A stretch of 64,000 nt of DNA from Escherichia coli. Its GTDB lineage: Bacteria; Pseudomonadota; Gammaproteobacteria; Enterobacterales; Enterobacteriaceae. The DNA lies in assembly GCF_051903065.1 (NCBI RefSeq), contig NZ_CP178438.1, one strand, 5' to 3'. Positions within the stretch are counted from its first letter, which is position 1; every line of letters begins with the position of its first letter. Positions 1-57,501 of this stretch are shown here, piece after piece. Below the pieces are notes generated by a model. That model did not search any database. It worked only from the letters and a program-made list of their open reading frames with translations, and was not told the DNA's origin. The translations under genes and the position numbers were made by a program.

Positions 1-822
1 ATCGTTACTGAAGAAGCCAACAGCAACACTGAAGAAGGCCTCAATCAACTGGCGACCAACTATATTGCTGCGGTTGGCGGCACTGACAACCTGAAAGCAA
101 TTGACGCCTGTATCACCCGTCTGCGCCTTACCGTGGCTGACTCTGCCCGCGTTAACGATACGATGTGTAAACGTCTGGGTGCTTCTGGTGTAGTAAAACT
201 GAACAAACAGACTATTCAGGTGATTGTTGGCGCGAAAGCAGAATCCATCGGCGATGCGATGAAGAAAGTCGTTGCCCGTGGCCCGGTAGCAGCTGCCTCT
301 GCTGAAGCAACTCCGGCAACTGCCGCTCCTGTAGCAAAACCGCAGGCTGTACCAAACGCGGTATCTATCGCGGAGCTGGTATCGCCGATTACCGGTGATG
401 TCGTGGCACTGGATCAGGTTCCTGACGAAGCATTCGCCAGCAAAGCGGTGGGTGACGGTGTGGCGGTGAAACCGACAGATAAAATCGTCGTATCACCAGC
501 CGCAGGGACAATCGTGAAAATCTTCAACACCAACCACGCGTTCTGCCTGGAAACCGAAAAAGGCGCGGAGATTGTCGTCCACATGGGTATCGACACCGTA
601 GCGCTGGAAGGTAAAGGCTTTAAACGTCTGGTGGAAGAGGGCGCGCAGGTAAGCGCAGGGCAACCGATTCTGGAAATGGATCTGGATTACCTGAACGCTA
701 ACGCCCGTTCGATGATTAGCCCGGTGGTTTGCAGCAATATCGATGATTTCAGTGGCTTGATCATTAAAGCTCAGGGCCATGTTGTGGCGGGTCAAACACC
801 GCTGTATGAAATCAAAAAGTAA
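1..822 (+). CDS. nagE: PTS N-acetylglucosamine-specific EIICBA component, 3' portion (5' end upstream of window)
   Basis: Frame 1 is open from base 1 to the stop at 820-822; translation contains the EIIB-type motif DACITRLRL and an EIIA-like C-terminal domain; glnS lies immediately downstream as in E. coli. Confidence 0.85.
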   Translation: MVTEEANSNTEEGLNQLATNYIAAVGGTDNLKAIDACITRLRLTVADSARVNDTMCKRLGASGVVKLNKQTIQVIVGAKAESIGDAMKKVVARGPVAAASAEATPATAAPVAKPQAVPNAVSIAELVSPITGDVVALDQVPDEAFASKAVGDGVAVKPTDKIVVSPAAGTIVKIFNTNHAFCLETEKGAEIVVHMGIDTVALEGKGFKRLVEEGAQVSAGQPILEMDLDYLNANARSMISPVVCSNIDDFSGLIIKAQGHVVAGQTPLYEIKK

Positions 823-1024
823 TCTGCTTTATGCCTGATGCGACGCTTGAGCGTCGCATCCAACAATGACAAGCGGTGGAGATCTTCTCTGCCGCTTTTT
901 TTTTCATCAATCATCCCCATAATCTCAGTGAGATTTTCGATTTTCACTAACTAACAGTTGTCAGCCTGTCCCGCTTATAAGATCATACGCCGTTATACGT
1001 TGTTTACGCTTTGAGGAATCCACG

Positions 1025-2689
1025 ATGAGTGAGGCAGAAGCCCGCCCGACTAACTTTATCCGTCAGATCATCGATGAAGATCTGGCCAGTGGTAAGCACA
1101 CCACAGTACACACCCGTTTCCCGCCGGAGCCGAATGGCTATCTGCATATTGGCCATGCGAAATCTATCTGCCTGAACTTCGGGATCGCCCAGGACTATAA
1201 AGGCCAGTGCAACCTGCGTTTCGACGACACTAACCCGGTAAAAGAAGATATCGAGTATGTCGATTCGATCAAAAACGACGTTGAGTGGTTAGGTTTTCAC
1301 TGGTCTGGTAACGTCCGTTACTCCTCCGATTATTTTGATCAGCTCCACGCCTATGCGATCGAACTGATCAATAAAGGCCTGGCGTACGTTGATGAACTGA
1401 CGCCGGAACAGATCCGCGAATACCGCGGCACCCTGACGCAGCCTGGTAAAAACAGCCCGTACCGCGACCGTAGCGTTGAAGAGAACCTGGCGCTGTTCGA
1501 GAAAATGCGTACCGGCGGTTTTGAAGAAGGTAAAGCCTGCCTGCGTGCGAAAATCGACATGGCTTCACCGTTTATCGTGATGCGCGATCCGGTGCTGTAC
1601 CGCATTAAATTTGCTGAACACCACCAGACTGGCAACAAGTGGTGCATCTACCCGATGTACGACTTCACCCACTGCATCAGCGATGCCCTGGAAGGTATTA
1701 CGCACTCTCTGTGTACGCTTGAGTTCCAGGATAACCGTCGTCTGTACGACTGGGTACTGGACAACATCACCATTCCTGTTCACCCGCGCCAGTACGAATT
1801 CTCGCGCCTGAATCTGGAATACACTGTGATGTCCAAGCGTAAGCTGAACCTGCTGGTGACCGATAAGCACGTTGAAGGCTGGGATGACCCGCGTATGCCG
1901 ACCATTTCCGGTCTGCGTCGTCGTGGTTACACTGCGGCTTCTATTCGTGAGTTCTGCAAACGCATCGGCGTGACCAAGCAGGACAACACCATTGAGATGG
2001 CGTCGCTGGAATCCTGCATCCGTGAAGATCTCAACGAAAATGCGCCGCGCGCAATGGCGGTTATCGATCCGGTGAAACTGGTTATCGAAAACTATCAGGG
2101 CGAAGGCGAAATGGTTACCATGCCGAACCATCCGAACAAACCGGAAATGGGCAGCCGTCAGGTGCCGTTTAGCGGTGAGATTTGGATCGATCGCGCCGAT
2201 TTCCGCGAAGAAGCTAACAAGCAGTACAAACGTCTGGTGCTCGGTAAAGAAGTGCGTCTGCGTAATGCTTATGTGATTAAGGCAGAACGCGTCGAGAAAG
2301 ATGCCGAAGGTAATATCACCACCATCTTCTGTACTTATGACGCCGACACCTTAAGCAAAGATCCGGCTGATGGTCGTAAAGTGAAAGGCGTTATTCACTG
2401 GGTGAGCGCGGCACATGCGCTGCCGGTTGAAATCCGTTTGTATGACCGTCTGTTCAGCGTGCCGAACCCTGGTGCTGCGGATGATTTCCTGTCGGTGATT
2501 AACCCGGAATCGCTGGTGATCAAACAGGGCTTTGCTGAGCCGTCGCTGAAAGATGCGGTTGCGGGTAAAGCATTCCAGTTTGAGCGTGAAGGTTACTTCT
2601 GCCTCGATAGCCGCCATTCTACGGCGGAAAAACCGGTATTTAACCGCACCGTTGGGCTGCGTGATACCTGGGCGAAAGTTGGCGAGTAA
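1025..2689 (+). CDS. glnS: glutaminyl-tRNA synthetase
   Basis: 554-aa ORF with class I aaRS HIGH motif (PNGYLHIGH) and MSK motif (VMSKR); N-terminus [20 protein letters not shown] matches GlnRS as I recall it. Confidence 0.95.
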
Positions 2690-2705
2690 TTTTAAGTTTC
2701 GCTAT

Positions 2706-2866
2706 GCCGGATGGGGCGTTTACGTCGCATCCGGCAAGGAACAGACAAACAGTTTCAAACGCTAAATTGCCTGATGCGCTACGCTTATCAGGCCTACATG
2801 ATCTCTGCAATATATTGAGTTTGCGTGCTTTTGTAGGCCGGATAAGGCGTTCACGCCGCATCCGGC
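2706..2866. repeat. BIME: three REP palindromes (2706-2735, 2769-2797, 2833-2866) with a conserved linker
   Basis: Imperfect palindromes of the REP type (gccggatg...catccggc; gcctgatgcg...cttatcaggcctac; gtaggccggataaggcg...) seen directly in the sequence. Confidence 0.7.
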
Positions 2867-2886
2867 AAGAAACATGCAAACAATCC

Positions 2887-2913
2887 TAAACGCCGCGGTC
2901 TGCGGCGTTTTTT
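2887..2913 (+). terminator. putative rho-independent terminator downstream of glnS
   Basis: GC hairpin acgccgc/gcggcgt followed by a T-run. Confidence 0.5.
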
Positions 2914-3267
2914 TCTGCTTTTCGTCACGAATTAATTCCGCTTCGCAATTTATCCATAAAATAAATTTAAAATAACAAAACATAATTAAATAAAATGTAA
3001 CCGCTTTCATCTTGCTGGAAATTCACGCTTTTATTCTTCTGCAAGCCTTTCAACCGCAAACTTAAGCCTTGTAACAAAAATCATCAAAATATGTGCGGTT
3101 GCTCATGTTCTTACATTCTGGTTACAGAAAGAGATTGATAATTCGCGCCGCGAAAAATAGTCTGTTCCTGTAGTCAGCGAGACTTTTCTCAACGCTACTT
3201 TTTTAATTTTTATTTTTTCGCTGTTCACCTTTGGTGCAGCAATTTATACGTCAAAGAGGATTAACCC

Positions 3268-4674
3268 ATGCGTACGTTTAGTGGCAAACGTAGTACGCTG
3301 GCGCTGGCTATCGCCGGTGTTACAGCAATGTCGGGCTTTATGGCAATGCCGGAGGCTCGCGCCGAAGGATTCATCGACGATTCAACCTTAACCGGCGGTA
3401 TCTATTACTGGCAGCGTGAACGCGACCGTAAAGATGTTACCGACGGCGACAAATACAAAACCAACCTTTCTCACTCCACCTGGAATGCCAACCTCGATTT
3501 TCAGTCTGGTTATGCTGCTGATATGTTCGGCCTTGATATTGCCGCGTTTACGGCGATTGAAATGGCGGAAAACGGCGACAGCTCTCACCCGAACGAAATC
3601 GCGTTTTCAAAAAGTAATAAAGCCTATGACGAAGACTGGTCCGGCGATAAAAGCGGTATAAGCCTGTATAAAGCAGCGGCCAAATTTAAATACGGTCCGG
3701 TTTGGGCGAGGGCAGGTTATATTCAGCCAACCGGTCAGACGCTGTTAGCGCCGCACTGGAGCTTTATGCCAGGTACCTATCAGGGTGCGGAAGCCGGAGC
3801 GAATTTTGATTACGGCGATGCCGGTGCGTTGAGTTTCTCCTACATGTGGACCAACGAATACAAAGCACCGTGGCATCTGGAAATGGATGAGTTTTATCAG
3901 AACGATAAAACTACCAAAGTTGATTATCTGCACTCCATCGGTGCGAAATACGACTTCAAAAATAACTTCGTACTGGAAGCGGCATTTGGTCAGGCGGAAG
4001 GGTATATCGATCAATACTTTGCCAAAGCCAGCTACAAATTTGATATCGCCGGTAGCCCGTTAACCACCAGCTACCAGTTCTACGGTACGCGCGATAAAGT
4101 TGACGATCGCAGCGTCAACGATCTTTATGACGGCACCGCCTGGCTGCAAGCGTTGACCTTTGGTTACCGGGCGGCTGACGTAGTGGATTTGCGCCTCGAA
4201 GGCACCTGGGTTAAAGCTGACGGTCAGCAGGGATACTTCCTGCAACGTATGACTCCAACCTACGCTTCCTCGAACGGTCGCCTGGATATCTGGTGGGATA
4301 ACCGTTCTGACTTCAACGCCAACGGCGAAAAAGCGGTCTTCTTCGGTGCGATGTATGACCTGAAAAACTGGAATCTTCCAGGCTTCGCCATCGGCGCTTC
4401 CTACGTTTACGCATGGGATGCTAAACCTGCGACCTGGCAGAGCAATCCGGATGCGTACTACGACAAAAACCGGACTATTGAAGAGTCTGCCTACAGCCTG
4501 GATGCGGTCTACACCATTCAGGACGGTCGCGCCAAAGGCACGATGTTCAAACTGCACTTCACCGAATACGACAACCACTCCGACATCCCAAGCTGGGGCG
4601 GCGGTTACGGTAACATCTTCCAGGATGAGCGTGACGTGAAATTTATGGTAATCGCACCATTCACCATCTTCTGA
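3268..4674 (+). CDS. chiP: chitooligosaccharide-specific outer membrane porin
   Basis: 468-aa ORF with N-terminal signal peptide and C-terminal aromatic residue (…PFTIF) typical of beta-barrel porins; size and position (glnS-chiP-chiQ-fur) match E. coli ybfM/chiP. Confidence 0.85.
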
Positions 4675-10178: not shown

Positions 10179-10198
10179 CGTATGACAAACACAGAATT

Positions 10199-10297
10199 GC
10201 CTGATGCGCTACGCTTATCAGGCCTACGAGGATGGTGCAATATATTGAATTTACGCGATTTTGTAGGCCGGATAAGGCGTTCATGCCGGATCCAGCA
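10199..10297. repeat. BIME: two REP palindromes with a conserved linker (possible RIP/IHF-type element)
   Basis: gcctgatgcgctacgcttatcaggcctac ... tgcaatatattgaattt ... gtaggccggataaggcgttcatgccggatcc; nearly the same architecture as 2769-2866. Confidence 0.7.
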
Positions 10298-10306
10298 TTT
10301 AACCGC

Positions 10307-18832: not shown

Positions 18833-21800
18833 ATGAGCGGAAAACCGGCGGCGCGTCAGGGCGACATGACGCAGTATGGCGGTAGCATTGTCCAGGGTTC
18901 AGCCGGGGTGCGCATCGGTGCCCCCACCGGCGTGGCCTGTTCGGTGTGCCCCGGCGGGGTGACGTCCGGCCATCCGGTCAATCCGCTGCTGGGTGCAAAG
19001 GTCCTTCCCGCTGAAACCGACATCGCCCTGCCCGCCCCGCTGCCGTTCATTCTCTCCCGCACCTACAGCAGTTACCGGACAAAAACGCCCGCGCCGGTGG
19101 GGAGCCTCGGCCCCGGCTGGAAAATGCCTGCGGATATCCGCTTACAGCTGCGCGATAACACACTGATACTCAGTGATAACGGCGGCAGAAGCCTGTATTT
19201 TGAGCACCTGTTTCCCGGTGAGGACGGTTACAGCCGCAGCGAGTCACTGTGGCTGGTGCGCGGCGGCGTGGCGAAACTGGATGAAGGTCACCGGCTGGCC
19301 GCACTCTGGCAGGCGCTGCCGGAAGAGCTTCGCCTGAGTCCGCATCGTTATCTGGCGACAAACAGTCCGCAGGGGCCGTGGTGGCTGCTCGGCTGGTGTG
19401 AGCGGGTGCCGGAAGCGGATGAGTTGCTGCCTGCGCCGCTGCCGCCGTACCGGGTACTGACCGGGCTGGTGGACCGCTTCGGGCGCACACAGACGTTCCA
19501 CCGCGAAGCCGCCGGTGAATTCAGCGGCGAAATCACCGGCGTGACGGATGGTGCCGGGCGTCACTTCCGGCTGGTACTGACCACGCAGGCGCAGCGGGCA
19601 GAAGAAGCCCGGCAGCAGGCCTCTTCCGGCGGGACGGAACCGTCCGCTTTTCCTGATACCCTGCCGGGTTACACCGAATATGGCCGGGACAACGGCATCC
19701 GTCTGTCTGCCGTGTGGCTGACGCACGACCCGGAATACCCGGACAACCTGCCAGCCGCGCCGCTGGTGCGCTATGGCTGGACGCCACGCGGCGAACTGGC
19801 GGCAGTGTATGACCGCAGCAATACACAGGTGCGCAGCTTTACTTACGATGATAAATACCGGGGCCGGATGGTGGCGCACCGTCACACGGGCCGACCGGAA
19901 ATCCGTTACCGTTACGACAGCGACGGGCGGGTGACAGAGCAGCTTAACCCGGCGGGCTTAAGCTACACCTACTGTTATGAGCAAAACCGCATCACCATCA
20001 CCGACAGCCTGGACCGCCGTGAAGTGCTGCACACGCAGGGCGAAGGCGGGCTGAAGCGGGTGGTGAAAAAGGAACACGCGGACGGCAGCGTCACGCAGAG
20101 TCAGTTTGATGCGGTGGGCAGGCTTAAGGCACAGACGGATGCCGCAGGCCGGACAACAGAATACAGCCCGGATGTGGTGACGGGACTCATCACGCGCATC
20201 ACCACACCGGATGGCAGGGCATCGGCATTTTACTATAACCACCACAGCCAGTTAACGTCAGCCACCGGGCCTGACGGGCTGGAATTGCGCCGGGAATATG
20301 ATGAATCCGGCCGTCTGATTCAGGAAACCGCCCCTGACGGCGATATCACCCGCTACCGTTATGATAATCCACACAGTGACTTACCCTGCGCAACGGACGA
20401 TGCCACCGGCAGCCGGAAAACCATGACGTGGAGCCGTTACGGCCAGTTGCTGAGCTTCACCGACTGTTCCGGTTATGTAACCCGTTATGACCATGACCGT
20501 TTCGGGCAGATGACGGCGGTGCACCGCGAGGAAGGGCTGAGTCAGTACCGCGCATACGACAGCCGTGGACAGTTAATTGCGGTGAAAGACATGCAGGGCC
20601 ATGAAATGCGGTATGAATACAACGCCGCCGGTGACCTGACCGCCGTCATTGCTCCGGACGGCAGCAGAAACGGGACACAGTACGATGCGTGGGGAAAGGC
20701 CATCCGTACCACGCAGGGCGGGCTGACGCGCAGTATGGAATACGATGCTGCCGGACGGGTCATCCGCCTGACCAGTGAAAACGGCAGCCATACCACCTTC
20801 CGTTACGATGTACTCGACCGGCTGATACAGGAAACCGGCTTTGACGGCCGCACACAGCGTTATCACCACGACCTGACCGGCAAACTTATCCGCAGCGAGG
20901 ATGAGGGGCTGGTCACCCACTGGCACTATGACGAAGCAGACCGCCTCACGCACCGCACCGTGAATGGCGAAACCGCAGAGCGGTGGCAGTATGACGAACG
21001 CGGCTGGCTGACAGACATCAGCCATATCAGCGAAGGGCACCGGGTGACGGTGCATTACGGGTATGATGAGAAAGGCCGGCTGACCGGTGAGCGTCAGACG
21101 GTGCATCACCCGCAGACGGAAGCACTGCTCTGGCAGCATGAGACCAGACACGCTTACAACGCGCAGGGACTGGCGAACCGCTGTATACCGGACAGCCTGC
21201 CCGCCGTGGAATGGCTGACCTACGGCAGCGGCTGGCTGTCAGGCATGAAGCTCGGCGACACACCGCTGGTGGATTTCACCCGCGACCGCCTGCACCGGGA
21301 AACGCTGCGCAGCTTCGGCCATTATGAACTCACCACCGCTTATACCCCTGCCGGGCAGTTACAGAGCCAGCACCTGAACAGCCTGCAGTATGACCGCGAT
21401 TACACCTGGAACGACAACGGCGAACTCATCCGCATCAGCAGCCCGCGCCATACCCGGAGTTACAGCTACAGCAACTCCGGCAGGCTGACCGGCGTTCACA
21501 CCACCACCTCAACTCTGGATATCCGCATCCCGTATGCCACGGACCCGGCAGGTAACCGCCTGCCCGACCCGGAGCTGCACCCGGACAGCACCCTCAGCAT
21601 GTGGCCGGATAACCGTATCGCCCGTGACGCGCACTATCTTTACCGGTATGACCGTCACGGCAGACTGACAGAGAAAACCGACCTCATCCCGGAAGGGGTT
21701 ATCCGCACGGATGATGAGCGCACCCACCGGTACCATTACGACAGTCAGCACCGGCTGGTGCACTACACGCGGACACAATATGCAGAGCCGCTGGTCGAAA

Positions 21801-23032
21801 GCCGCTATCTTTACGACCCGCTGGGCCGCAGGGTGGCAAAACGGGTATGGCGACGTGAACGGGACCTGACGGGCTGGATGTCGCTGTCACGGAAACCGCA
21901 AGTGACCTGGTACGGCTGGGATGGCGACCGCCTGACCACGATACAGAACGACAGAACCCGCATCCAGACGATTTATCAGCCGGGGAGCTTCACACCACTC
22001 ATCAGAGTTGAAACTGCCACCGGTGAACTGGCCAGAACGCAGCGCCGCAGCCTGGCGGATGCCCTTCAGCAGTCCGGCGGTGAAGACGGTGGCAGTGTGG
22101 TGTTCCCGCCGGTGCTGGTGCAGATGCTCGACCGGCTGGAAAGTGAAATCCTGGCTGACCGGGTGAGTGAGGAAAGTCGCCGCTGGCTGGCATCGTGCGG
22201 CCTGACGGTGGAGCAGATGCAAAACCAGATGGACCCGGTGTACACGCCGGCGCGAAAAATCCACCTGTACCACTGCGACCATCGCGGCCTGCCGCTGGCG
22301 CTTATCAGTGCGGAAGGGGCTACAGAATGGTGCGCAGAATACGATGAATGGGGCAACCTGCTGAATGAAGAGAACCCGCAACAGCTGCAGCAGCTCATCC
22401 GCCTGCCGGGTCAGCAGTATGATGAGGAGTCCGGCCTGTATTACAATCGCCACCGCTATTATGACCCGCTGCAGGGGAGGTATATCACTCAGGATCCGAT
22501 TGGGCTGAAGGGGGGATGGAATTTTTATCAGTATCCGTTGAATCCGGTTCAGTATATAGATTCAATGGGACTGGCATCAAAATATGGACACTTAAATAAT
22601 GGCGGATATGGAGCGAGACCCAACAAACCGCCTACGCCCGATCCAAGTAAATTGCCAGACATAGCGAAACAATTAAGACTGCCATATCCTATTGACCAGG
22701 CCAGTAGTGCGCCTAATGTTTTCAAAACATTCTTCAGAGCATTAAGCCCTTACGACTACACACTGTATTGCAGGAAGTGGGTAAAACCAAATCTGACTTG
22801 TACGCCACAGGATGATCCCCAGTATCCAGGGATGGATACAAAGACAGCAAGTGATTACCTGCCACAGACAAATTGGCCAACAACTCAATTACCACCAGGA
22901 TATACTTGTGCAGAACCCTATTTATTCCCAGACATTAATAAACCCGATGGGCCAGCAACAGCAGGGATAGATGATTTGGGTGAAATTTTAGCTAAAATGA
23001 AACAGAGAACATCGAGAGGAATAAGAAAATGA
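18833..23032 (+). CDS. rhsC: Rhs-family polymorphic toxin (rhsC-type): GC-rich YD-repeat core plus AT-rich variable C-terminal toxin domain
   Basis: 1399-aa ORF with many YD/RHS repeats (…YRYD…GR…), a core-end motif …[39 protein letters not shown], and a compositionally distinct tail; sits between ybfA and ybgA. Confidence 0.9.
22576..23032 (+). other. variable C-terminal toxin domain of the Rhs protein (about 150 aa, no recognisable catalytic motif)
   Basis: Begins just after the DPIGL…DSMGL core boundary; codon usage switches abruptly from GC-rich to AT-rich; Pro/Cys-containing sequence with no HNH/nuclease/deaminase motif that I can recognise. Confidence 0.6.
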
Positions 23033-23598
23033 AAAGAGTTTTGTTCTTTTTGCTGATGATATTTGTTAGTTTTGGTGTTATAGCTGATTGCGAAATACAA
23101 GCTAAAGATCATGATTGTTTTACTATTTTCGCTAAGGGTACTATTTTTTCCGCGTTTCCTGTCTTAAATAATAAAGCCATGTGGAAATGGTATCAGAATG
23201 AGGACATCGGTGAGTATTATTGGCAAACAGAACTGGGTACATGTAAAAATAATAAATTCACACCAAACGGGGCGAGACTCTTAATTCGCGTCGGGTCACT
23301 ACGCCTTAATGAAAATCATGCCATCAAAGGAACGTTGCAGGAGTTGATAAATACAGCAGAAAAAACGGCGTTTCTCGGCGATCGGTTTAGAAGTTATATA
23401 AGAGCGGGTATCTATCAAAAAAAGAGCAGTGATCCAGCTCAGTTGTTGGCAGTCCTTGATAATTCAATCATGGTTAAATATTTTAAAGATGAGAAGCCAA
23501 CTTATGCTCGAATGACAGCACATCTCCCGAACAAAGATGAGTCTTACGAATGTTTAACAAAAATACAGCATGAACTGCTTCGTAGTGAAGAAAAATAA
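23029..23598 (+). CDS. putative cognate Rhs immunity protein with N-terminal signal-peptide-like segment
   Basis: 189-aa AT-rich ORF whose ATG overlaps the rhs stop (ATGA at 23029-23032); N-terminus [19 protein letters not shown] looks like a Sec signal peptide; same size as K-12 ybfC as I recall it, but identity not verified. Confidence 0.6.
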
Positions 23599-23619
23599 AA
23601 CATCTTCCTGAGAGAATAA

Positions 23620-23757
23620 ATTAACCATTCGGGAAAACATGTTCTTAATGGATATCCAGGTACACCAGAAGGTCGATTTGGAAAAATGGATTCCGATGGT
23701 AAGAATATCATATATTCTGAATGTAATGTTTTACCCACAACTTTTGAGATTCGATAG
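23620..23757 (+). pseudogene. orphan toxin C-terminal remnant (no start codon)
   Basis: Open frame without an initiator encoding …NHSGKHVLNGYPGTPEGRFGKMDSDGKNIIYSECNVLPTTFEIR, ending 9 nt before the next small ORF; this arrangement is typical of orphan toxin-tip/immunity cassettes downstream of rhs genes. Confidence 0.4.
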
Positions 23758-23766
23758 GTGTAGAAC

Positions 23767-24069
23767 ATGAGAAACTCACTAATATTACTTATTATGATAT
23801 TGTTTACAATATCACACTCAGTATTTGGAAAAGAAAATCCAGTGGAAATTTTAGTAAATAGTTGTGAAATGGCTTTGGAATTATCATATGTTTACATTAA
23901 ATATGTATACGGGAAAGAAAAAGCAGAATTTCAGAAACCATATAGTATTACAGATGACAATAATTGTTGGAAAATCGAGGGAAAACAACCGAAGACTTTA
24001 GGAGGAAATTTTACAATACTAATAGCGAAAAAAGATGGGCAAGTGTTGAATGTAATACACACGAAATAA
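23767..24069 (+). CDS. putative orphan immunity protein (small, signal-peptide-bearing)
   Basis: 100-aa AT-rich ORF, N-terminus MRNSLILLIMILFTISHSVFG is signal-peptide-like; directly follows the toxin remnant. Confidence 0.45.
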   Translation: MRNSLILLIMILFTISHSVFGKENPVEILVNSCEMALELSYVYIKYVYGKEKAEFQKPYSITDDNNCWKIEGKQPKTLGGNFTILIAKKDGQVLNVIHTK

Positions 24070-24489
24070 TCCACTGTACAGTCGATTCAAATATTTTACC
24101 AAGGTGTGTTTCGTAACAATTTTGTGTACAATATGACTCTACATATCGACGAAAAAACCACTTGATTTGACAGGAACACATTCAAAAAAATTTCTTTTTT
24201 TCATTTCAGGAGCGATTTTCATCTGTTACTTGAAGTATCTGTGAGATTAAGTGACTCCCCCTAACGTCGTACTAAATAGTAATTACTGGCCATACCGGGA
24301 GCAGTATTCGGCGCTCCCCACATGCAGCAGAATAACCGCATCAGCCAGGGAAAGATCATCAAAAGTTCACTTTTTGCACTAAATAATTCGCATTTTATGT
24401 TTAAAAATTGAGATATTCCTTATTACCTAAAGCTGTTTTTTATTGCTTATACATGATCAAATACTCCTTACATAATTAAGGAGAACAAA

Positions 24490-25625
24490 ATGGAACTTAA
24501 AAAATTGATGGAACATATTTCTATTATCCCTGATTACAGACAAGCCTGGAAAGTGGAGCATAAATTATCGGATATTCTACTGTTGACTATTTGTGCCGTT
24601 ATTTCTGGTGCAGAAGGCTGGGAAGATATAGAGGATTTTGGGGGAACACATCTCGATTTTTTGAAGCAATATGGTGATTTTGAAAATGGTATTCCTGTCC
24701 ACGATACCATTGCCAGAGTTGTATCCTGTATCAGTCCTGCAAAATTTCACGAGTGCTTTATTAACTGGATGCGTGACTGCCATTCTTCAAATGATAAAGA
24801 CGTCATTGCAATTGATGGAAAAACACTCCGGCATTCTTATGACAAGAGTCGCCGCAGGGGAGCGATTCATGTCATTAGTGCGTTCTCAACAATGCACAGT
24901 CTGGTCATCGGACAGATCAAGACAGATGAGAAATCTAATGAGATCACAGCTATCCCTGAACTTCTTAACATGCTGGATATTAAAGGAAAAATTATCACAA
25001 CTGATGCGATTGGTTGCCAGAAAGATATCGCAGAGAAGATACAAAAACAGGGCGGTGATTATTTATTCGCTGTAAAAGGAAATCAGGGGCGGCTTAATAA
25101 AGCCTTTGAGGAAAAATTTCCACTGAAAGAATTAAATAATCCAGAGCATGACAGTTACGCAATGAGTGAAAGAGTCACGGCAGAGAAGAGATCCGTCTTC
25201 ATAATGTTTGCGATGTCCCTGATGAACTTATTGATTTCACGTTTGAATGGAAAGGGCTGAAGAAATTATGCGTGGCAGTCTCCTTTCGGTCCATAATAGC
25301 AGAACAAAAGAAAGAGCCAGAAATGACGGTCAGATATTATATCAGTTCTGCTGATTTAACCGCAGAGAAGTTCGCCACAGCAATCCGAAACCACTGGCAC
25401 GTGGAGAATAAGCTGCACTGGCGTCTGGACGTGGTAATGAATGAAGACGACTGCAAAATAAGAAGAGGAAATGCAGCAGAATTATTTTCAGGGATACGGC
25501 ACATTGCTATTAATATTTTGACGAATGATAAGGTATTCAAGGCAGGGTTAAGACGTAAGATGCGAAAAGCAGCCATGGACAGAAACTATCTGGCGTCAGT
25601 CCTTGCGGGGAGCGGGCTTTCGTAA
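24490..25625 (+). pseudogene. ISAs1-family (H-repeat-associated) transposase, disrupted by a frameshift between 25260 and 25272
   Basis: Two adjacent ORFs (24490-25260, 256 aa, frame 1; 25272-25625, 117 aa, frame 3) that together total about 378 aa, the size of an H-repeat/ISAs1 transposase (N-terminus [51 protein letters not shown]); similar to K-12 ybfD/ybfL as I recall them. Confidence 0.75.
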
Positions 25626-25637
25626 TCTTGCCCTGGA

Positions 25638-25895
25638 ATGCTGACAGATAAGAATGATTGTGCCAGAATTGAAGCTATAAGCGGACTGGCAGAAAGAAAA
25701 GATAATCGTGTTATAACTGCTATAATTTATGAACTGCAAAAAAACATAATTTTTGATGAAGTTATTATTTTGGCAGGTATTTTAGGTGATATTAAACTAC
25801 ATCCTATTCAAAAAAATATATTAAATGAATTTAATGATGAGGATGTCATTGGCAATATAAAGTCAGCAATACAACAAATTATAAAATATAATTGA
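25638..25895 (+). CDS. hypothetical protein fragment with HEAT/PBS-lyase-like repeat pattern
   Basis: 85-aa AT-rich ORF immediately after the H-repeat element; repeat-like …ARIEAISGLAERKDNRVITAIIYEL… pattern; likely a remnant. Confidence 0.3.
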   Translation: MLTDKNDCARIEAISGLAERKDNRVITAIIYELQKNIIFDEVIILAGILGDIKLHPIQKNILNEFNDEDVIGNIKSAIQQIIKYN

Positions 25896-27993: not shown

Positions 27994-28021
27994 CAGACGC
28001 GTCAGGCAATTGAGCCCAGAT

Positions 28022-28127
28022 GCCGGATGCGGCGTGAACGCCTTATCCAGCCTACAAATTTGTGCAAATTCAATAAATTGCAGGAAATACGTAGGCCTGA
28101 TAAGACGCGTCAAGCGTCGCATCAGGC
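28022..28127. repeat. BIME: two REP palindromes with AT-rich linker
   Basis: gccggatgcggcgtgaacgccttatccagcctac … gtaggcctgataagacgcgtcaagcgtcgcatcaggc. Confidence 0.7.
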
Positions 28128-28142
28128 ATCGGTGCTGGCCTA

Positions 28143-45472: not shown

Positions 45473-45476
45473 ACCG

Positions 45477-45594
45477 TAGGCCTGATAAGACGCGCAAGCG
45501 TCGCATCAGGCAACCAGTGCCGGATGCGGCGTGAACGCCTTATCCGGCCTACAAGTCATTACCCGTAGGCCTGATAAGCGCAGCGCATCAGGCG
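45477..45594. repeat. BIME: three REP palindromes between sdhB and sucA
   Basis: gtaggcctgataagacgcgcaagcgtcgcatcaggc / gccggatgcggcgtgaacgccttatccggcctac / gtaggcctgataagcgcagcgcatcaggc. Confidence 0.75.
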
Positions 45595-49806: not shown

Positions 49807-49828
49807 TAGTTTAAGTTTCACCTGCACT

Positions 49829-49997
49829 GTAGACCGGATAAGACATTATCGCCTTCTCCGGCAATTGAAGCCTGATGCGACGCTTAACGCGTCTTATCAG
49901 GCCTACGGGAAGCACCGATGTAGGTCGGATAAGGCGCTCGCGCCGCATCCGACAAGCGATGCCAGATGCGACGCTTACACGTCTTATCAGGCCTACG
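49829..49997. repeat. BIME: four REP palindromes between sucB and sucC
   Basis: Four alternating REP units (gtagaccggataagac…, gcctgatgcgacgcttaacgcgtcttatcaggcctac, gtaggtcggataaggcgctcgcgccgcatccgac, gccagatgcgacgcttacacgtcttatcaggcctac). Confidence 0.75.
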
Positions 49998-50081
49998 GGT
50001 GACCGACAATACCCGGAAGCGATACGAAATATTCGGTCTACGGTTTAAAAGATAACGATTACTGAAGGATGGACAGAACAC

Positions 50082-51248: not shown

Positions 51249-52117
51249 TGTCCATTTTAATTGATAAAAACACCAAGGTTATCTGCCAGGGCTTTACCGG
51301 TAGCCAGGGGACTTTCCACTCAGAACAGGCCATTGCATACGGCACTAAAATGGTTGGCGGCGTAACCCCAGGTAAAGGCGGTACTACCCACCTCGGCCTG
51401 CCGGTGTTCAACACCGTGCGTGAAGCTGTTGCTGCTACTGGCGCTACCGCTTCTGTTATCTACGTACCAGCACCGTTCTGCAAAGACTCCATTCTGGAAG
51501 CCATCGACGCAGGCATCAAACTGATTATCACCATCACTGAAGGCATCCCGACGCTGGATATGCTGACCGTGAAAGTGAAGCTGGATGAAGCAGGCGTTCG
51601 TATGATCGGCCCGAACTGCCCAGGCGTTATCACTCCGGGTGAATGCAAAATCGGTATCCAGCCTGGTCACATTCACAAACCGGGTAAAGTGGGTATCGTT
51701 TCCCGTTCCGGTACACTGACCTATGAAGCGGTTAAACAGACCACGGATTACGGTTTCGGTCAGTCGACCTGTGTCGGTATCGGCGGTGACCCGATCCCTG
51801 GCTCTAACTTTATCGACATTCTCGAAATGTTCGAAAAAGATCCGCAGACCGAAGCGATCGTGATGATCGGTGAGATCGGCGGTAGCGCTGAAGAAGAAGC
51901 GGCTGCGTACATCAAAGAGCACGTTACCAAGCCAGTTGTGGGCTACATCGCTGGTGTGACTGCGCCGAAAGGCAAACGTATGGGCCATGCGGGTGCCATC
52001 ATTGCCGGTGGGAAAGGGACTGCGGATGAGAAATTCGCTGCTCTGGAAGCCGCAGGCGTGAAAACCGTTCGCAGCCTGGCGGATATCGGTGAAGCACTGA
52101 AAACTGTTCTGAAATAA
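51248..52117 (+). CDS. sucD: succinyl-CoA synthetase alpha subunit
   Basis: 289-aa [31 protein letters not shown]… with the phosphohistidine region (…GHAGAII…). Confidence 0.95.
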
Positions 52118-52217
52118 ATATCTGTAATAAGAAATAGCCCTCGCCGCTTCCCTCTACAGGAATGGCGAAGGGCTGTCGGTTTCGACATGGTTGGCCATCG
52201 TATGATGGCCTTTTTTA
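52118..52217 (+). ncRNA. sdhX: probable SdhX (RybD) 3'-UTR-derived sRNA with its terminator
   Basis: About 100 nt after the sucD stop contains two hairpins, the second (ggccatcgtatgatggcc + TTTTTT, 52193-52216) being a canonical intrinsic terminator. Assignment as SdhX is from established knowledge of the sucD 3' UTR; I did not verify it by alignment. Confidence 0.45.
52193..52216 (+). terminator. sdhCDAB-sucABCD operon terminator
   Basis: Perfect 7-bp stem ggccatc/gatggcc with a 4-nt loop followed by TTTTTT. Confidence 0.8.
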
Positions 52218-52352
52218 TGTCTTAAACGGTTAACCACGGTCGAAATCTGACTGCAGGCTTGACTGCATGACCACAACCACTGTGGATTGCCGCGACCGGT
52301 GATGCTGCCAACTTACTGATTTAGTGTATGATGGTGTTTTTGAGGTGCTCCA

Positions 52353-52628
52353 GTGGCTTCTGTTTCTATCAGCTGTCCCTCCTGTTCAGCTACTGACGGG
52401 GTGGTGCGTAACGGCAAAAGCACCGCCGGACATCAGCGCTATCTCTGCTCTCACTGCCGTAAAACATGGCAACTGCAGTTCACTTACACCGCTTCTCAAC
52501 CCGGTACGCACCAGAAAATCATTGATATGGCCATGAATGGCGTTGGATGCCGGGCAACAGCCCGCATTATGGGCGTTGGCCTCAACACGATTTTACGTCA
52601 CTTAAAAAACTCAGGCCGCAGTCGGTAA
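52353..52628 (+). CDS. insA: IS1 InsA
   Basis: 91-aa [46 protein letters not shown]… (zinc-finger DNA-binding InsA). Confidence 0.95.
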
Positions 52629-53050
52629 CCTCGCGCATACAGCCGGGCAGTGACGTCATCGTCTGCGCGGAAATGGACGAACAGTGGGGCTATGTCGGGG
52701 CTAAATCGCGCCAGCGCTGGCTGTTTTACGCGTATGACAGGCTCCGGAAGACGGTTGTTGCGCACGTATTCGGTGAACGCACTATGGCGACGCTGGGGCG
52801 TCTTATGAGCCTGCTGTCACCCTTTGACGTGGTGATATGGATGACGGATGGCTGGCCGCTGTATGAATCCCGCCTGAAGGGAAAGCTGCACGTAATCAGC
52901 AAGCGATATACGCAGCGAATTGAGCGGCATAACCTGAATCTGAGGCAGCACCTGGCACGGCTGGGACGGAAGTCGCTGTCGTTCTCAAAATCGGTGGAGC
53001 TGCATGACAAAGTCATCGGGCATTATCTGAACATAAAACACTATCAATAA
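52547..53050 (+). CDS. insB: IS1 InsB' (expressed as InsAB' transposase by -1 frameshift)
   Basis: 167-aa ORF in the -1 frame relative to insA, overlapping its 3' end, as in IS1. Confidence 0.9.
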
Positions 53051-53560
53051 GTTGGAGTCATTACCGCCGCGACCGACCGCAAGCCACGAATAAGAACGAC
53101 GGCGAATTTCGAATCGTTACCTGATGCACTGGCTTCCCAGCGTTTGACCGTAGCGTTAAGTAAATCAACAAAAGCGATGTTCACCGCTTTTCGTCAAGTC
53201 GTGCCATTTGTCAGCCAGGATCGGGTCTTTACCCCGGATATTGCAGCATCGCAAAAATTCTTAGATGGATATGCTATAAATCAAAAATAAAATCTTTGTT
53301 GATTGTTTATCATAATATCCACAGATATGATAAATGATATCAATTTAATAATTTTCACTTAATGTGATTCCGGATAATTCGAAAGGCGCTGTGCTTTTCG
53401 GATTATTATTATCTGATTAAGATATTTGTCACGCCAGCCTTACTGGTTTATAAATGTCAATCATGATTCTTATAAATTATTTATTGCTGCTTTGGTTACC
53501 ATTACTTCGTAATAAGTAATGTATTTTTGATGGTTTAAACTATTTTTAAGGGACGGCATT

Positions 53561-54184
53561 ATGCGAGGGAAAATACCTAAAACGGAACTGCTGGTGACTT
53601 TTGAGGTCGTCGCACGTCATGAAAGTTATACCAGAGCGGCAGAGGAGTTAGCGTTAACCCAAAGTGCAGTATTCAGACAAGTAAGTGCGCTGGAGGAATT
53701 TTTACGTACTCCGTTATTTTCACACTCTAAAAAACGCATTTTTCTTAATGATACAGGGAAGTATTACCTGGGGATAGTAAAAGAAACATTAAATAAGCTG
53801 GAACGCGATACCAATACCATTATGACCTGGCAGCCTACGGTTCAGGTTATTGAACTTGCCGTTAATCCTACTTTTAGTACCCACTGGTTGATCCCAAATT
53901 TACATGAATTCACAAAGTTACATCCCGATATTATTGTTAATATTCATTCTTTAGCTAATAACGGCGATTTTCTTAATCGGGAGTACGATGCTGTCATTAT
54001 GCGCGAAAATTTTTGCGCGCCCTGGGCGGAAGTAGAATATCTCTTTGATGAGGAGATTTTGCCGGTATGCAGCGGCAGTTTGCTTGCAATGTCCGATCAA
54101 AAGCTGTCAGTGGCAGAACTGCTTACTGAGTTACCGCTTCTGCATCAAAGCACGGCTTTGTTGAATAAATCAGATTTCGGGTAA
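53561..54184 (+). pseudogene. LysR-family transcriptional regulator, 3'-truncated by the IS903-like element (native codons 1-197; the last codons are IS-derived)
   Basis: N-terminal LysR-type HTH (…LVTFEVVARHESYTRAAEELALTQSAVFRQVSALEEFL…); the reading frame runs into the IS903 inverted repeat at 54153 and terminates 32 nt inside it; AT-rich. Confidence 0.8.
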
Positions 54185-55210
54185 GTCTCCCCCGTAGCGG
54201 GTTGTGTTTTCAGGCAATACGCACGCTTTCAGGCATACCTGCTTTCGTCATTTTGTTCAGCGCTCGTACCAGGGCCATAGCCTCTGCAACCTGACCATCG
54301 TAGTCACGCAGTGTCAGTGAACCCCCGAACAGCTGTTTTACCCGGTACATCGCCGTTTCCGCTATCGAGCGACGGTTGTAATCTGTTGTCCATTTCCACC
54401 GCGCATTACTCCCGGTCATTCGCTGATTAGCCACTGCACGGTTACGGTCTGCATATTCACCGGGCCAGTAACCCGCACCTTTTCGGGGAGGGATAAGCGC
54501 GCTGATTTTCTTACGCCGCAGTTCATCGTGACATAGCCGGGTATCGTAAGCGCCATCGGCGGCGGCTGACCTGATTTTCCGGTGGGTTTGCCGGATTAAC
54601 CCGGGGAAGGCCTCTGAGTCCGTAACGTTGTTCAGCGACAGGTCAGCGCAGATGATTTCATGTGTTTTACTGTCAACGGCGAGATGCAGCTTACGCCAGA
54701 TACGGCGGCGTTCCTGGCCATGCTTTTTGACTTTCCACTCGCCTTCACCGAAGACCTTCAGCCCGGTGGAATCAATTACCAGGTGTGCGATTTCACCCCG
54801 GGTGGGCGTTTTGAAACTGACATTAACCGACTTTGCCCGCCTGCTGACACAGCTGTAATCCGGGCAGCGTAGCGGAACGTTCATCAGAGAAAAAATGGAA
54901 TCAATAAAGCCCTGCGCAGCGCGCAGGGTCAGCCTGAATACGCGTTTAATGACCAGCACAGTCGTGATGGCAAGGTCAGAATAGCGCTGAGGTCTGCCTC
55001 GTGAAGAAGGTGTTGCTGACTCATACCAGGCCTGAATAGCTTCATCATCCAGCCAGAAAGTTATGGAGCCACGGTTGATGAGGGCTTTATTGTAGGTGGG
55101 CCAGTTGGTGATTTTGAACTTTTGCTTTGCCACGGAACGGTCTGCGTTGTCGGGAAGATACGTGATCTGATCCTTCAACTCAGCAAAAGTTCGATTTATT
55201 CAACAAAGCC
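54153..55210 (-). mobile_element. IS903-like element (IS5 family, IS903 group), about 1058 bp, with 18-bp terminal inverted repeats and no flanking target duplication
   Basis: Ends ggctttgttgaataaatc (54153-54170) and gatttattcaacaaagcc (55193-55210); encodes the transposase below; flanking 9-mers tcaaagcac and atttatcag differ. Confidence 0.85.
54210..55178 (-). CDS. IS903-type transposase
   Basis: ORF …KQKFKITNWPTYNKALINRGSITFWLDDEAIQAWYESATPSSRGRPQRYSDLAITTVLVIKRVFRLTLRAAQGF… with DDE-type motifs (…VIDSTGLKV…, …AADGAYDTR…, …YNRRSIAETAMYRVKQLFG…); the track start is at 55178, and the true start may be an internal GTG. Confidence 0.85.
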   Translation of the reverse strand: MKDQITYLPDNADRSVAKQKFKITNWPTYNKALINRGSITFWLDDEAIQAWYESATPSSRGRPQRYSDLAITTVLVIKRVFRLTLRAAQGFIDSIFSLMNVPLRCPDYSCVSRRAKSVNVSFKTPTRGEIAHLVIDSTGLKVFGEGEWKVKKHGQERRRIWRKLHLAVDSKTHEIICADLSLNNVTDSEAFPGLIRQTHRKIRSAAADGAYDTRLCHDELRRKKISALIPPRKGAGYWPGEYADRNRAVANQRMTGSNARWKWTTDYNRRSIAETAMYRVKQLFGGSLTLRDYDGQVAEAMALVRALNKMTKAGMPESVRIA

Positions 55211-55581
55211 ATTTATCAGGCGAAAGTGGCCTCTGTTCACTCAGAAACAATCACTCCCGGTAAGTCATACCTGTTTCATCGATACATTTAAGTGATTATT
55301 ACTAATGAAACAATAACATAACGGGCTTACGGTCGGTGCTCATAAAGGCAACAATCAATTAACTTTGATAAAAATATGTTATGTAAAATAGCAACAAATT
55401 GGCTACTCTAATCAATTGGTATTATAAAAAGTTGATTGGGCGGTTCTGTTAAATAAAACACTGGTTTTTTATCTATACCTTTTCATTGTAATAATTGTGT
55501 TGCATAAATATTTCACAATAAATTAACAATAAAATCACCAATGATCTATGGTTTATACATAATTAACATATTTGGTTGGTT

Positions 55582-55595
55582 TTGATATAAATCAA
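55582..55595. promoter_or_regulatory. perfect FNR/CRP-family box TTGAT-ATAA-ATCAA in the cydAB upstream region
   Basis: Sequence ttgatataaatcaa matches the FNR consensus TTGAT-N4-ATCAA exactly, about 340 bp upstream of the cydA start; cydAB is known to be FNR/ArcA-regulated. Confidence 0.55.
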
Positions 55596-55932
55596 TTTTT
55601 AATTCTTGAAAAAAATCTGCAAAACACGATAAATTGTCGTAGATCAAATTGGTGAGATCGTGACAATTTCGCTATAAATTGATCACTGTCGAAAAATGCA
55701 AATTTGCTCAATAAAAACCTGTTTATTGTAAGGATTTTGCGGCGTAATATAATTACGGGATCAATTTGGTTTATTCATTAACATATTTGTAACTTTTTTA
55801 TCATTGTCTTTTCCTCTTTTGATGAAATGGCAACGATAGAGGCGAGCAAATAATTTTGTATTGGGGCATGCGTGTGACCCTTTCTAACGGGGTTCACTCT
55901 CGGAGTCTTCATGCGATGAGCAAGGAGTCATG

Positions 55933-57501
55933 ATGTTAGATATAGTCGAACTGTCGCGCTTACAGTTTGCCTTGACCGCGATGTACCACTTCCTTTTTGT
56001 GCCACTGACGCTCGGTATGGCGTTCCTGCTGGCCATTATGGAAACGGTCTACGTCCTTTCCGGCAAACAGATTTATAAAGATATGACCAAGTTCTGGGGC
56101 AAGTTGTTTGGTATTAACTTTGCTCTGGGTGTGGCTACCGGTCTGACCATGGAGTTCCAGTTCGGGACTAACTGGTCTTACTATTCCCACTATGTAGGGG
56201 ATATCTTCGGTGCGCCGCTGGCAATCGAAGGTCTGATGGCCTTCTTCCTCGAATCCACCTTTGTAGGTCTGTTCTTCTTCGGTTGGGATCGTCTGGGTAA
56301 AGTTCAGCATATGTGTGTCACCTGGCTGGTGGCGCTCGGTTCAAACCTGTCCGCACTGTGGATTCTGGTTGCGAACGGCTGGATGCAAAACCCAATCGCG
56401 TCCGATTTCAACTTTGAAACTATGCGTATGGAGATGGTGAGCTTCTCCGAGCTGGTGCTTAACCCGGTTGCTCAGGTGAAATTCGTTCACACTGTAGCGT
56501 CTGGTTATGTGACTGGCGCGATGTTCATCCTCGGTATCAGCGCATGGTATATGCTGAAAGGTCGTGACTTCGCCTTCGCTAAACGCTCCTTTGCTATCGC
56601 TGCCAGCTTCGGTATGGCTGCCGTTCTGTCTGTTATTGTTCTGGGTGATGAATCTGGTTACGAAATGGGCGACGTGCAGAAAACCAAACTGGCTGCTATT
56701 GAAGCTGAGTGGGAAACGCAACCTGCGCCTGCTGCCTTTACTCTGTTCGGCATTCCTGATCAGGAAGAGGAGACGAACAAATTTGCGATCCAGATCCCTT
56801 ACGCGCTGGGCATCATTGCAACGCGTTCCGTGGATACTCCAGTTATCGGCCTGAAAGAACTGATGGTGCAGCATGAAGAACGCATTCGTAACGGGATGAA
56901 GGCGTACTCTCTGCTCGAGCAACTGCGTTCTGGTTCTACCGACCAGGCGGTTCGTGACCAGTTCAATAGCATGAAGAAAGACCTCGGTTACGGTCTGCTG
57001 CTGAAACGCTATACGCCAAACGTGGCTGATGCGACTGAAGCTCAGATTCAACAGGCAACCAAAGACTCCATCCCGCGTGTAGCGCCGCTGTACTTTGCGT
57101 TCCGTATCATGGTGGCGTGTGGCTTCCTGCTGCTGGCAATCATCGCGCTCTCTTTCTGGAGTGTCATCCGCAACCGCATTGGCGAGAAAAAATGGCTCCT
57201 GCGCGCCGCGCTGTACGGTATTCCGCTGCCGTGGATTGCTGTAGAAGCGGGCTGGTTCGTGGCTGAATATGGCCGCCAACCGTGGGCTATCGGTGAAGTG
57301 CTGCCGACAGCTGTGGCGAACTCGTCACTGACCGCAGGCGATCTCATCTTCTCAATGGTGCTGATTTGCGGCCTGTATACCCTGTTCCTGGTGGCAGAAT
57401 TGTTCTTAATGTTCAAGTTTGCACGCCTCGGCCCAAGCAGCCTGAAAACCGGTCGCTATCACTTTGAGCAGTCTTCCACGACTACTCAGCCGGCACGCTA
57501 A
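55933..57501 (+). CDS. cydA: cytochrome bd-I ubiquinol oxidase subunit I
   Basis: Product [31 protein letters not shown]… (the track ORF has one additional upstream Met at 55930). Confidence 0.95.

Follow-up and report, generated by a model that had tools for sequence, protein, structure and literature searches.

The methylaspartate glutamate-fermentation cluster is known from E. coli O157:H7 and other enterobacteria, where FumD acts as a mesaconase (Kronen and Berg 2015, PMC4682846). That study reported 26.5% of E. coli strains to carry the cluster, whose gene set comprises glmS, glmL, glmE, mal, DUF1446, gltP, fumD, cobA/cobO and the gene of a LysR-type regulator (LTTR) (PMC4682846). In K-12, the same interval, from sucD to cydA, carries the mngRAB locus (2-O-alpha-mannosyl-D-glycerate utilisation). 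Adjacent deletions are a documented activity of IS903, and a duplication-less "IS at the centre of a deletion" has been proposed for an IS903-subgroup element of the IS5 family in E. coli C (PMC11708052). The present analysis of a 64-kb stretch of E. coli DNA (64,000 nucleotides, hereafter the window) identified, between sucD and cydA, a complete IS903B located at the junction of a deletion.

This IS903B (IS5 family, IS903 group) is 1,057 bp long and spans positions 54154-55210 on the minus strand; the first-pass annotation of the window had correctly recognised an IS903-like element but placed its start one base too early, at 54153. The element is bounded by terminal inverted repeats whose first 18 bases are perfectly complementary: GGCTTTGTTGAATAAATC at the left end in the orientation of the window (54154-54171, plus strand) and its perfect 18-bp pair at the right, cydA-side end (55193-55210, minus strand). 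In the 64-kb window, GGCTTTGTTGAATAAATC has two matches, which are the two IS termini, compared to none in 100 shuffles. The transposase ORF (54210-55178, minus strand) is intact, with a TTG start and 322 codons, and matches the NCBIfam profile NF033579 (IS5 family transposase) along its whole length (positions 1-289 of 289) with 357 bits, for a cut-off of 140 bits. This gene is oriented towards the LysR remnant and away from cydA. Its length, its perfect 18-bp inverted repeats and its single intact ORF encoding an IS5-family DDE transposase assign the element to IS903B. Furthermore, the identical element of strain 23CRST027 carries the RefSeq product name "IS5-like element IS903B family transposase", and the IS903B copy of strain ECNB21-M121 is 100% identical to that of the window across 1,057 bp.

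Comparison with related strains revealed the extent of the deletion. In XH990, which is free of IS at this locus, the two junctions occur on one strand, in unchanged order, and are separated by exactly 12,469 bp; its left flank shows 100% identity with that of the window, and both junctions give exact 50-bp matches. In ECNB21-M121, the junctions are 13,535 bp apart, which corresponds to 12,469 bp plus the IS903B of this strain (1,057 bp) and its duplication (9 bp). Both endpoints of the deletion coincide exactly with the IS903B termini, and no microhomology was found between the two breakpoints. Alignment with these relatives shows that an IS903B-associated deletion removed exactly 12,469 bp of the ancestral locus. 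The IS-associated deletion initially suspected at this site is thus borne out, since the flanks are collinear and non-adjacent in IS-free relatives. The loss had originally been put forward to explain the different interval lengths of the window and of K-12 (3.8 kb vs about 6.4 kb). These lengths are correct (3,815 bp from the sucD stop, at 52117, to the cydA start in the window vs 6,408 bp in K-12 MG1655), but they do not measure the deletion, the two strains carrying different alleles. The ancestral interval is rather that of XH990, in which the distance from sucD to cydA is 14,450 bp, i.e. 3,815 bp minus 1,057 bp (IS903B) minus 777 bp (IS1 and its duplication) plus 12,469 bp.

The deletion begins at codon 199 of the LTTR gene and ends 83 bp upstream of a divergent gene encoding a hypothetical protein of 314 aa. 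In the orientation of the window, which gives the gene order of the cluster, the lost DNA comprised: the 3′-terminal 103 codons of the LTTR gene, cobO, fumD (class I fumarate hydratase), a dicarboxylate/amino-acid (gltP-like) symporter gene, DUF4387, DUF1446/AtuA, the methylaspartate ammonia-lyase gene (mal), glmE, glmL (chaperone), glmS and two hypothetical genes. No NCBIfam family was found for the deleted hypothetical proteins (314 aa and 140 aa). The genes of glutamate mutase (glmS and glmE), of methylaspartate ammonia-lyase and fumD are missing from the window, which the ECNB21-M121 reference matches only outside the deleted segment. By its gene content, the lost DNA is the known methylaspartate/glutamate-fermentation cluster located between sucD and cydA, and not mngRAB as the first-pass annotation had proposed. 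The intact relatives have the same gene set at the same position as the cluster described by Kronen and Berg (PMC4682846). In contrast, what the window keeps is just the first 198 codons of the LTTR gene, together with 346 bp from the edge of the island, and the pathway itself is missing.

The IS903B of the window also differs from other copies by its flanks. The 9-mers that adjoin it, TCAAAGCAC on the left (54145-54153) and ATTTATCAG on the right (55211-55219), are those given by the first-pass annotation; they are unrelated, so that there is no 9-bp target duplication. In the intact gene, TCAAAGCAC is followed by CCGTATTAC, and in the intact locus, GCTCATTTTTC directly precedes ATTTATCAG. 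That 9-bp duplications are the norm for IS903-type insertions, as had been assumed, was verified for the copy of ECNB21-M121 (CAATCCCCA/CAATCCCCA) and for a related copy in GN25 (CTCTCTGAG/CTCTCTGAG). Since other IS903B copies have such duplications, their lack here reflects the deletion and not the element: a single complete IS903B is left at the deletion scar and therefore has no target duplication. The window provides an internal contrast, about 1.1 kb to the left of the duplication-less IS903B: a 768-bp IS1 (52298-53065, plus strand), which represents a simple insertion into the DNA separating sucD/sdhX from the LysR gene, with a normal 9-bp target duplication (GCCGCGACC at 52289-52297 and 53066-53074). 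This IS1 is annotated as IS1A in 23CRST027 and is missing from XH990 and ECNB21-M121. Shifted boundaries of the IS903B that would restore a duplication were considered and ruled out, its inverted repeats being perfect to the last base; the boundary ambiguity is only 1 bp (C), at the right end.

On the left side of the IS903B, the 5′ remnant of the LTTR gene of the methylaspartate cluster (53561-54153, plus strand) retains native codons 1 to 198 of 301. The first-pass annotation had rightly placed this flank in the interior of a LysR-family gene, which is broken at codon 198 of 301. Over its 198 native codons, the remnant encodes a sequence identical to the start of the 301-aa protein WP_001214265.1; these codons are followed by nine codons encoded by the IS and a stop, the frame being open to position 54184. 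The remnant aligns with positions 3-196 only, of the 305 positions of a GcvA-like profile, and the RefSeq annotation of 23CRST027 describes it as a pseudogene without C-terminus.

On the right side, the surviving cydA-proximal edge of the island (55211-55556) consists of 346 bp of AT-rich, island-specific intergenic DNA without counterpart in K-12. It is followed by the upstream region of cydA that is conserved in K-12-type strains (55557-55932, plus strand), which shows 96.2% homology with K-12 and was untouched by the deletion. The cydA start is at 55933 (RefSeq-equivalent), so that similarity with K-12 resumes about 373-376 nt before cydA. The island edge begins with an open stretch of 27 codons, IYQAKVASVHSETITPGKSYLFHRYI-stop (55211-55291, plus strand, ending in ...LFHRYI), which exists as initially described but had been taken for the end of a deleted gene, perhaps mngB. 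This attribution fails: in the intact locus, the frame counts 42 open codons, is closed by a stop that precedes the junction by 48 nt and has no ATG. None of the 25 best-matching RefSeq genomes has an annotated feature at this place. When the 3′ end of K-12 mngB and the mngB-cydA spacer were aligned to the window, no similarity was found before 55557, and homology with K-12 thus begins again 266 bp beyond the open stretch. According to these alignments, the stretch is a chance open frame in intergenic DNA upstream of cydA and no gene remnant. Two assignments of its product were considered and rejected. The C-terminus of MngB (...GQSRTFSYRLA) is unrelated to it, and so is that of the LTTR (...LLAKSVVPQEM), which would have implied a deletion within the LTTR gene; the right flank lies 12.5 kb off in intact strains.

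The lack of mngRAB was correctly noticed, but it is not due to the IS903B. Searches by tblastn with MngR, MngA and MngB across the 64-kb window gave a best E value of 1.3, i.e. no homology. In the complete chromosomes of two clone-mates, 23CRST027 and 23CRST031, no mngB was found, since only the LysR part of a chimeric query (5′ part of the LysR gene plus a segment of mngB) has a match, at one place in each record. XH990 and ECNB21-M121, which are IS-free at the IS903B site of the window, are also devoid of mngRAB and have the same spacer. Therefore, the loss of mngRAB is older than the insertion and independent of IS903B. The region homologous to sdhX of K-12 (52118-52224, plus strand) ends where mngR begins in K-12 and in 88-3493. 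The assignment to sdhX relies on a 98.6% alignment to K-12 alone, since no family reached the gathering score when 51900-56100 was scanned against Rfam. In 88-3493, which harbours both cassettes, the order is sucD-mngR-mngA-mngB-rtcB-LysR-cluster-cydA. Where mngRAB is present, it is located between sucD and the LysR gene and not at the right flank of the IS903B. When the IS1 is disregarded, the sucD-LysR spacer of the window tracks 88-3493 as far as the mngR stop; beyond it, the spacer jumps to a short piece of the end of rtcB (92% identity) and then to a weaker 66-nt match (77%) inside rtcB. On this distribution, the loss of mngRAB is best described as an older lineage-wide polymorphism at the sucD-side boundary 52224/52225. 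The mngRAB locus of K-12 is an alternative or additional cassette of the same interval, missing here, which is not what the IS903B removed.

We searched for these sequences in 5,426 complete E. coli genomes. The left flank of the IS903B is present in 1,127 of them and the full right flank in 2,245; the core of the methylaspartate cluster was found in 1,136 (about 21%) and mngAB in 3,884. The number of genomes carrying both cassettes was deduced from the chimeric query, which matched 5,010 places in 4,880 genomes: about 130 genomes harbour both cassettes and 546 neither. Only 23CRST027, isolated from human faeces in Ecuador and 99.99-100% identical to the window over its whole 64 kb, and 23CRST031 have both junctions and the IS1. 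Their chromosomes each carry IS903B at about 19-20 places. The clone-mates differ from the window by the terminal 47 bp at the right end of the IS (GATCTGATCC...CAACAAAGCC), which are present twice in tandem, the second copy abutting ATTTATCAG; this 47-bp tandem end is known from two assemblies of one study. The cluster has also been struck by IS in other strains: by IS903B in ECNB21-M121 and GN25, and by IS1 in EC2641 and 2018-05-2CC.

Precursors of the deletion were searched for in the same 5,426 complete genomes with 240-bp junction queries, which matched just the two clone-mates and also GN25, where the IS occupies another site. Neither a simple IS903B insertion with its duplication at one of the two sites nor a locus with two directly oriented IS903B copies, each with its duplication, was found among these genomes. 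The predicted precursor junction on the LTTR side consists of TTCAACAAAGCC (right end of the IS), TCAAAGCAC (duplication) and CCGTATTAC (LTTR gene onward), and the one on the cydA side of GCTCATTTTTC (island DNA), ATTTATCAG (duplication) and GGCTTTGTTGAA (left end of the IS). Two scans of JGI metagenome contigs for exact 30-32-nt predicted precursor junctions gave no match.

The deletion was probably catalysed by the IS903B transposase, through intramolecular transposition ("adjacent deletion"). As in the adjacent deletions known for IS903/IS903B, a complete IS stays in place, the deletion starts at an IS terminus, there is neither a target duplication nor microhomology at the breakpoints, and the ancestral flanks are collinear. 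However, the donor site is unobserved here, and the extra 47-bp end of the clone-mates is outside the textbook case. The ancestor would have been an E. coli lineage with the methylaspartate cluster, and not mngRAB, in the sucD-cydA interval. An IS903B resident at one of the two sites would have attacked a target on the same chromosome, the intervening DNA being lost as a circle. If the 47-bp end is real, the target would have been another IS903B copy, located at the cydA-side site and struck 47 bp from its end, and collapse of the tandem repeat of 47 bp would have produced the form of the window. The order of these events is itself unobserved, the genomes and metagenome contigs searched containing no precursor. 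The 47-bp end could thus be a molecular fossil of one IS903B that transposed intramolecularly into a second copy, for example through the inside ends of two flanking copies, which may have attacked that copy 47 bp from its terminus, the window having collapsed later; we only tentatively propose this scenario. If true, it would offer a natural and stepwise-documented case in which a transposase, and not recombination, eliminated a metabolic island. Alternatively, the 47-bp end could stem from a duplication that occurred later or from a difference between assemblies.

A homologous, RecA-type recombination between two IS903B copies of the same orientation, acquired by independent insertions into the LTTR gene and upstream of the gene of the 314-aa hypothetical protein, is a less probable explanation that nevertheless deserves serious consideration. 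It would have eliminated the intervening 12.5 kb and merged the two copies into a single hybrid, which gives exactly the structure of the window: a complete IS with unrelated and collinear flanks. Such events are a recognised source of missing duplications, the clone has about 19-20 IS903B copies, and the cluster is a repeated target of IS903B and IS1 in other strains. In the E. coli long-term evolution experiment, deletions due to recombination between IS copies have reportedly been catalogued for both IS150 and IS1. They likewise leave a single hybrid IS, with one flank from each parental insertion and no duplication, but none of the strains searched here has both parental insertions. This explanation requires two independent, co-oriented insertions in a space of 12.5 kb, neither of which was seen in the 5,426 complete genomes, and it leaves the extra 47-bp IS end of the clone-mates unexplained. 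Transposition into another IS copy predicts a 47-bp solo end at the flank whereas plain homologous recombination between IS copies does not. Because the clone-mates carry this extra end at the junction, the transposase route is, insofar as their two assemblies are right, slightly favoured over recombination between IS copies.

The one-step capture of an IS903B from elsewhere into a double-strand break, during a deletion independent of any IS, would have the same end product, with the IS at the centre of the deletion, no duplication and no detectable precursor. Its mechanism is hypothetical, the absence of a precursor from databases is weak evidence in its favour, and it does not account for the 47-bp extra end either; we consider it improbable. 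It is still less credible that contigs were mis-joined across a repeated IS903B: this element is indeed multi-copy in the clone, but two independently deposited complete genomes share both junctions, with 99.99-100% identity over 64 kb. As for the initial suggestion that the IS-associated deletion took mngR-mngA-mngB and left the 3′ end of mngB at 55211-55291, it is refuted. It agrees with the lack of mngRAB in the window and in the chromosomes of the clone-mates, and about 130 genomes such as 88-3493 hold both cassettes, so that the lineage did lose mngRAB at some time. However, the open stretch is contiguous with intergenic island DNA in intact strains, where it is unannotated and unlike the 3′ end of mngB; IS-free relatives with identical flanks are also devoid of mngRAB; mngRAB, where present, sits between sucD and the LTTR gene; and the older boundary is at 52224/52225. 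Deletion by the IS903B transposase remains the reading that we slightly prefer.

This event truncated the LTTR regulator and eliminated the whole methylaspartate pathway. It is of a kind already known: the IS and its behaviour are both familiar, as is the accessory cluster, and annotated RefSeq genomes already contain this structure; knowledge of IS903 and of the cluster is unchanged by this locus. Its value concerns annotation: the strain is devoid of both mngRAB and the methylaspartate cluster, and these two losses differ in cause and age. Moreover, the methylaspartate cluster has been repeatedly eroded by IS1 and IS903B across E. coli lineages, which fits with a cluster that is dispensable in many niches. 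The cydAB genes are intact, as are the 722 bp that precede cydA, which are 99.9-100% identical to those of IS-free relatives. Because of this near-identity and since the transposase gene reads away from cydA, the deletion would not be expected to affect cydAB.

The interval between sucD and cydA occurs in E. coli in at least four allelic states, carrying mngRAB only (its occupant in K-12), the methylaspartate cluster only, both cassettes or neither of them. The two cassettes are found together in about 130 genomes, where mngB is separated from the LysR gene by an RtcB-family gene (the whole locus is present in strain 88-3493, L010), and about 546 genomes have neither. The locus of E2348/69 (O127:H6) is another degraded form, in which only small remnants survive, 392 bp of mngA and 510 bp of glmS, separated by about 1.5 kb (NZ_LT903847.1, 4109900-4112350).

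In the window, a 39-bp relic of the rtcB end, 92% identical to that of 88-3493, is retained in the spacer, past the older boundary at 52224/52225. Together with a second, weaker rtcB-internal match in this spacer (66 nt, 77%), it suggests an old deletion of mngRAB-rtcB. The adjacent segment 52118-52224 gives a 98.6% alignment to the part of K-12 that bears the SdhX sRNA annotation; the Rfam search of positions 51900-56100 returned no family at gathering score. An IS1 of 768 bp (52298-53065) is integrated between sucD and the LysR gene, 74 bp beyond the end of this K-12 homology; its 9-bp target duplication, GCCGCGACC, occupies 52289-52297 on one side and 53066-53074 on the other. It is shared with both clone-mates, 23CRST027 and 23CRST031, and is not present at this locus in XH990 or ECNB21-M121, two relatives that lack the IS903B-associated deletion.

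Independent IS damage to the methylaspartate cluster was detected in four other strains: an IS1B-bounded deletion extending from the LysR gene to the symporter gene in EC2641 (L004:8082-9531), IS903B within the DUF1446/AtuA gene of ECNB21-M121 (L001:11749-12801), IS903B within the gene of a 314-aa hypothetical protein in GN25 (L005:2058-3120) and IS1A within the LysR gene of 2018-05-2CC. This suggests that decay of the cluster is recurrent.

The last 47 bp of IS903B are single-copy in the window (55164-55210) and tandemly duplicated exactly at the IS/flank junction in 23CRST027 (L002:6823-6916) and 23CRST031. This tandem end may be a relic of IS903B transposition into IS903B; it may also have been duplicated later, or reflect a difference between assemblies.

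Further upstream, at positions 18834-25895 (placed by correspondence with L006), an RHS element core protein gene is accompanied by ybfC, by a gene for an NTF2-fold immunity protein and by an ISAs1 transposase gene that is frameshifted. REP-like repeats are located at about 2757-2871, 10184-10298, 28020-28131, 45474-45593 and 49825-49999.
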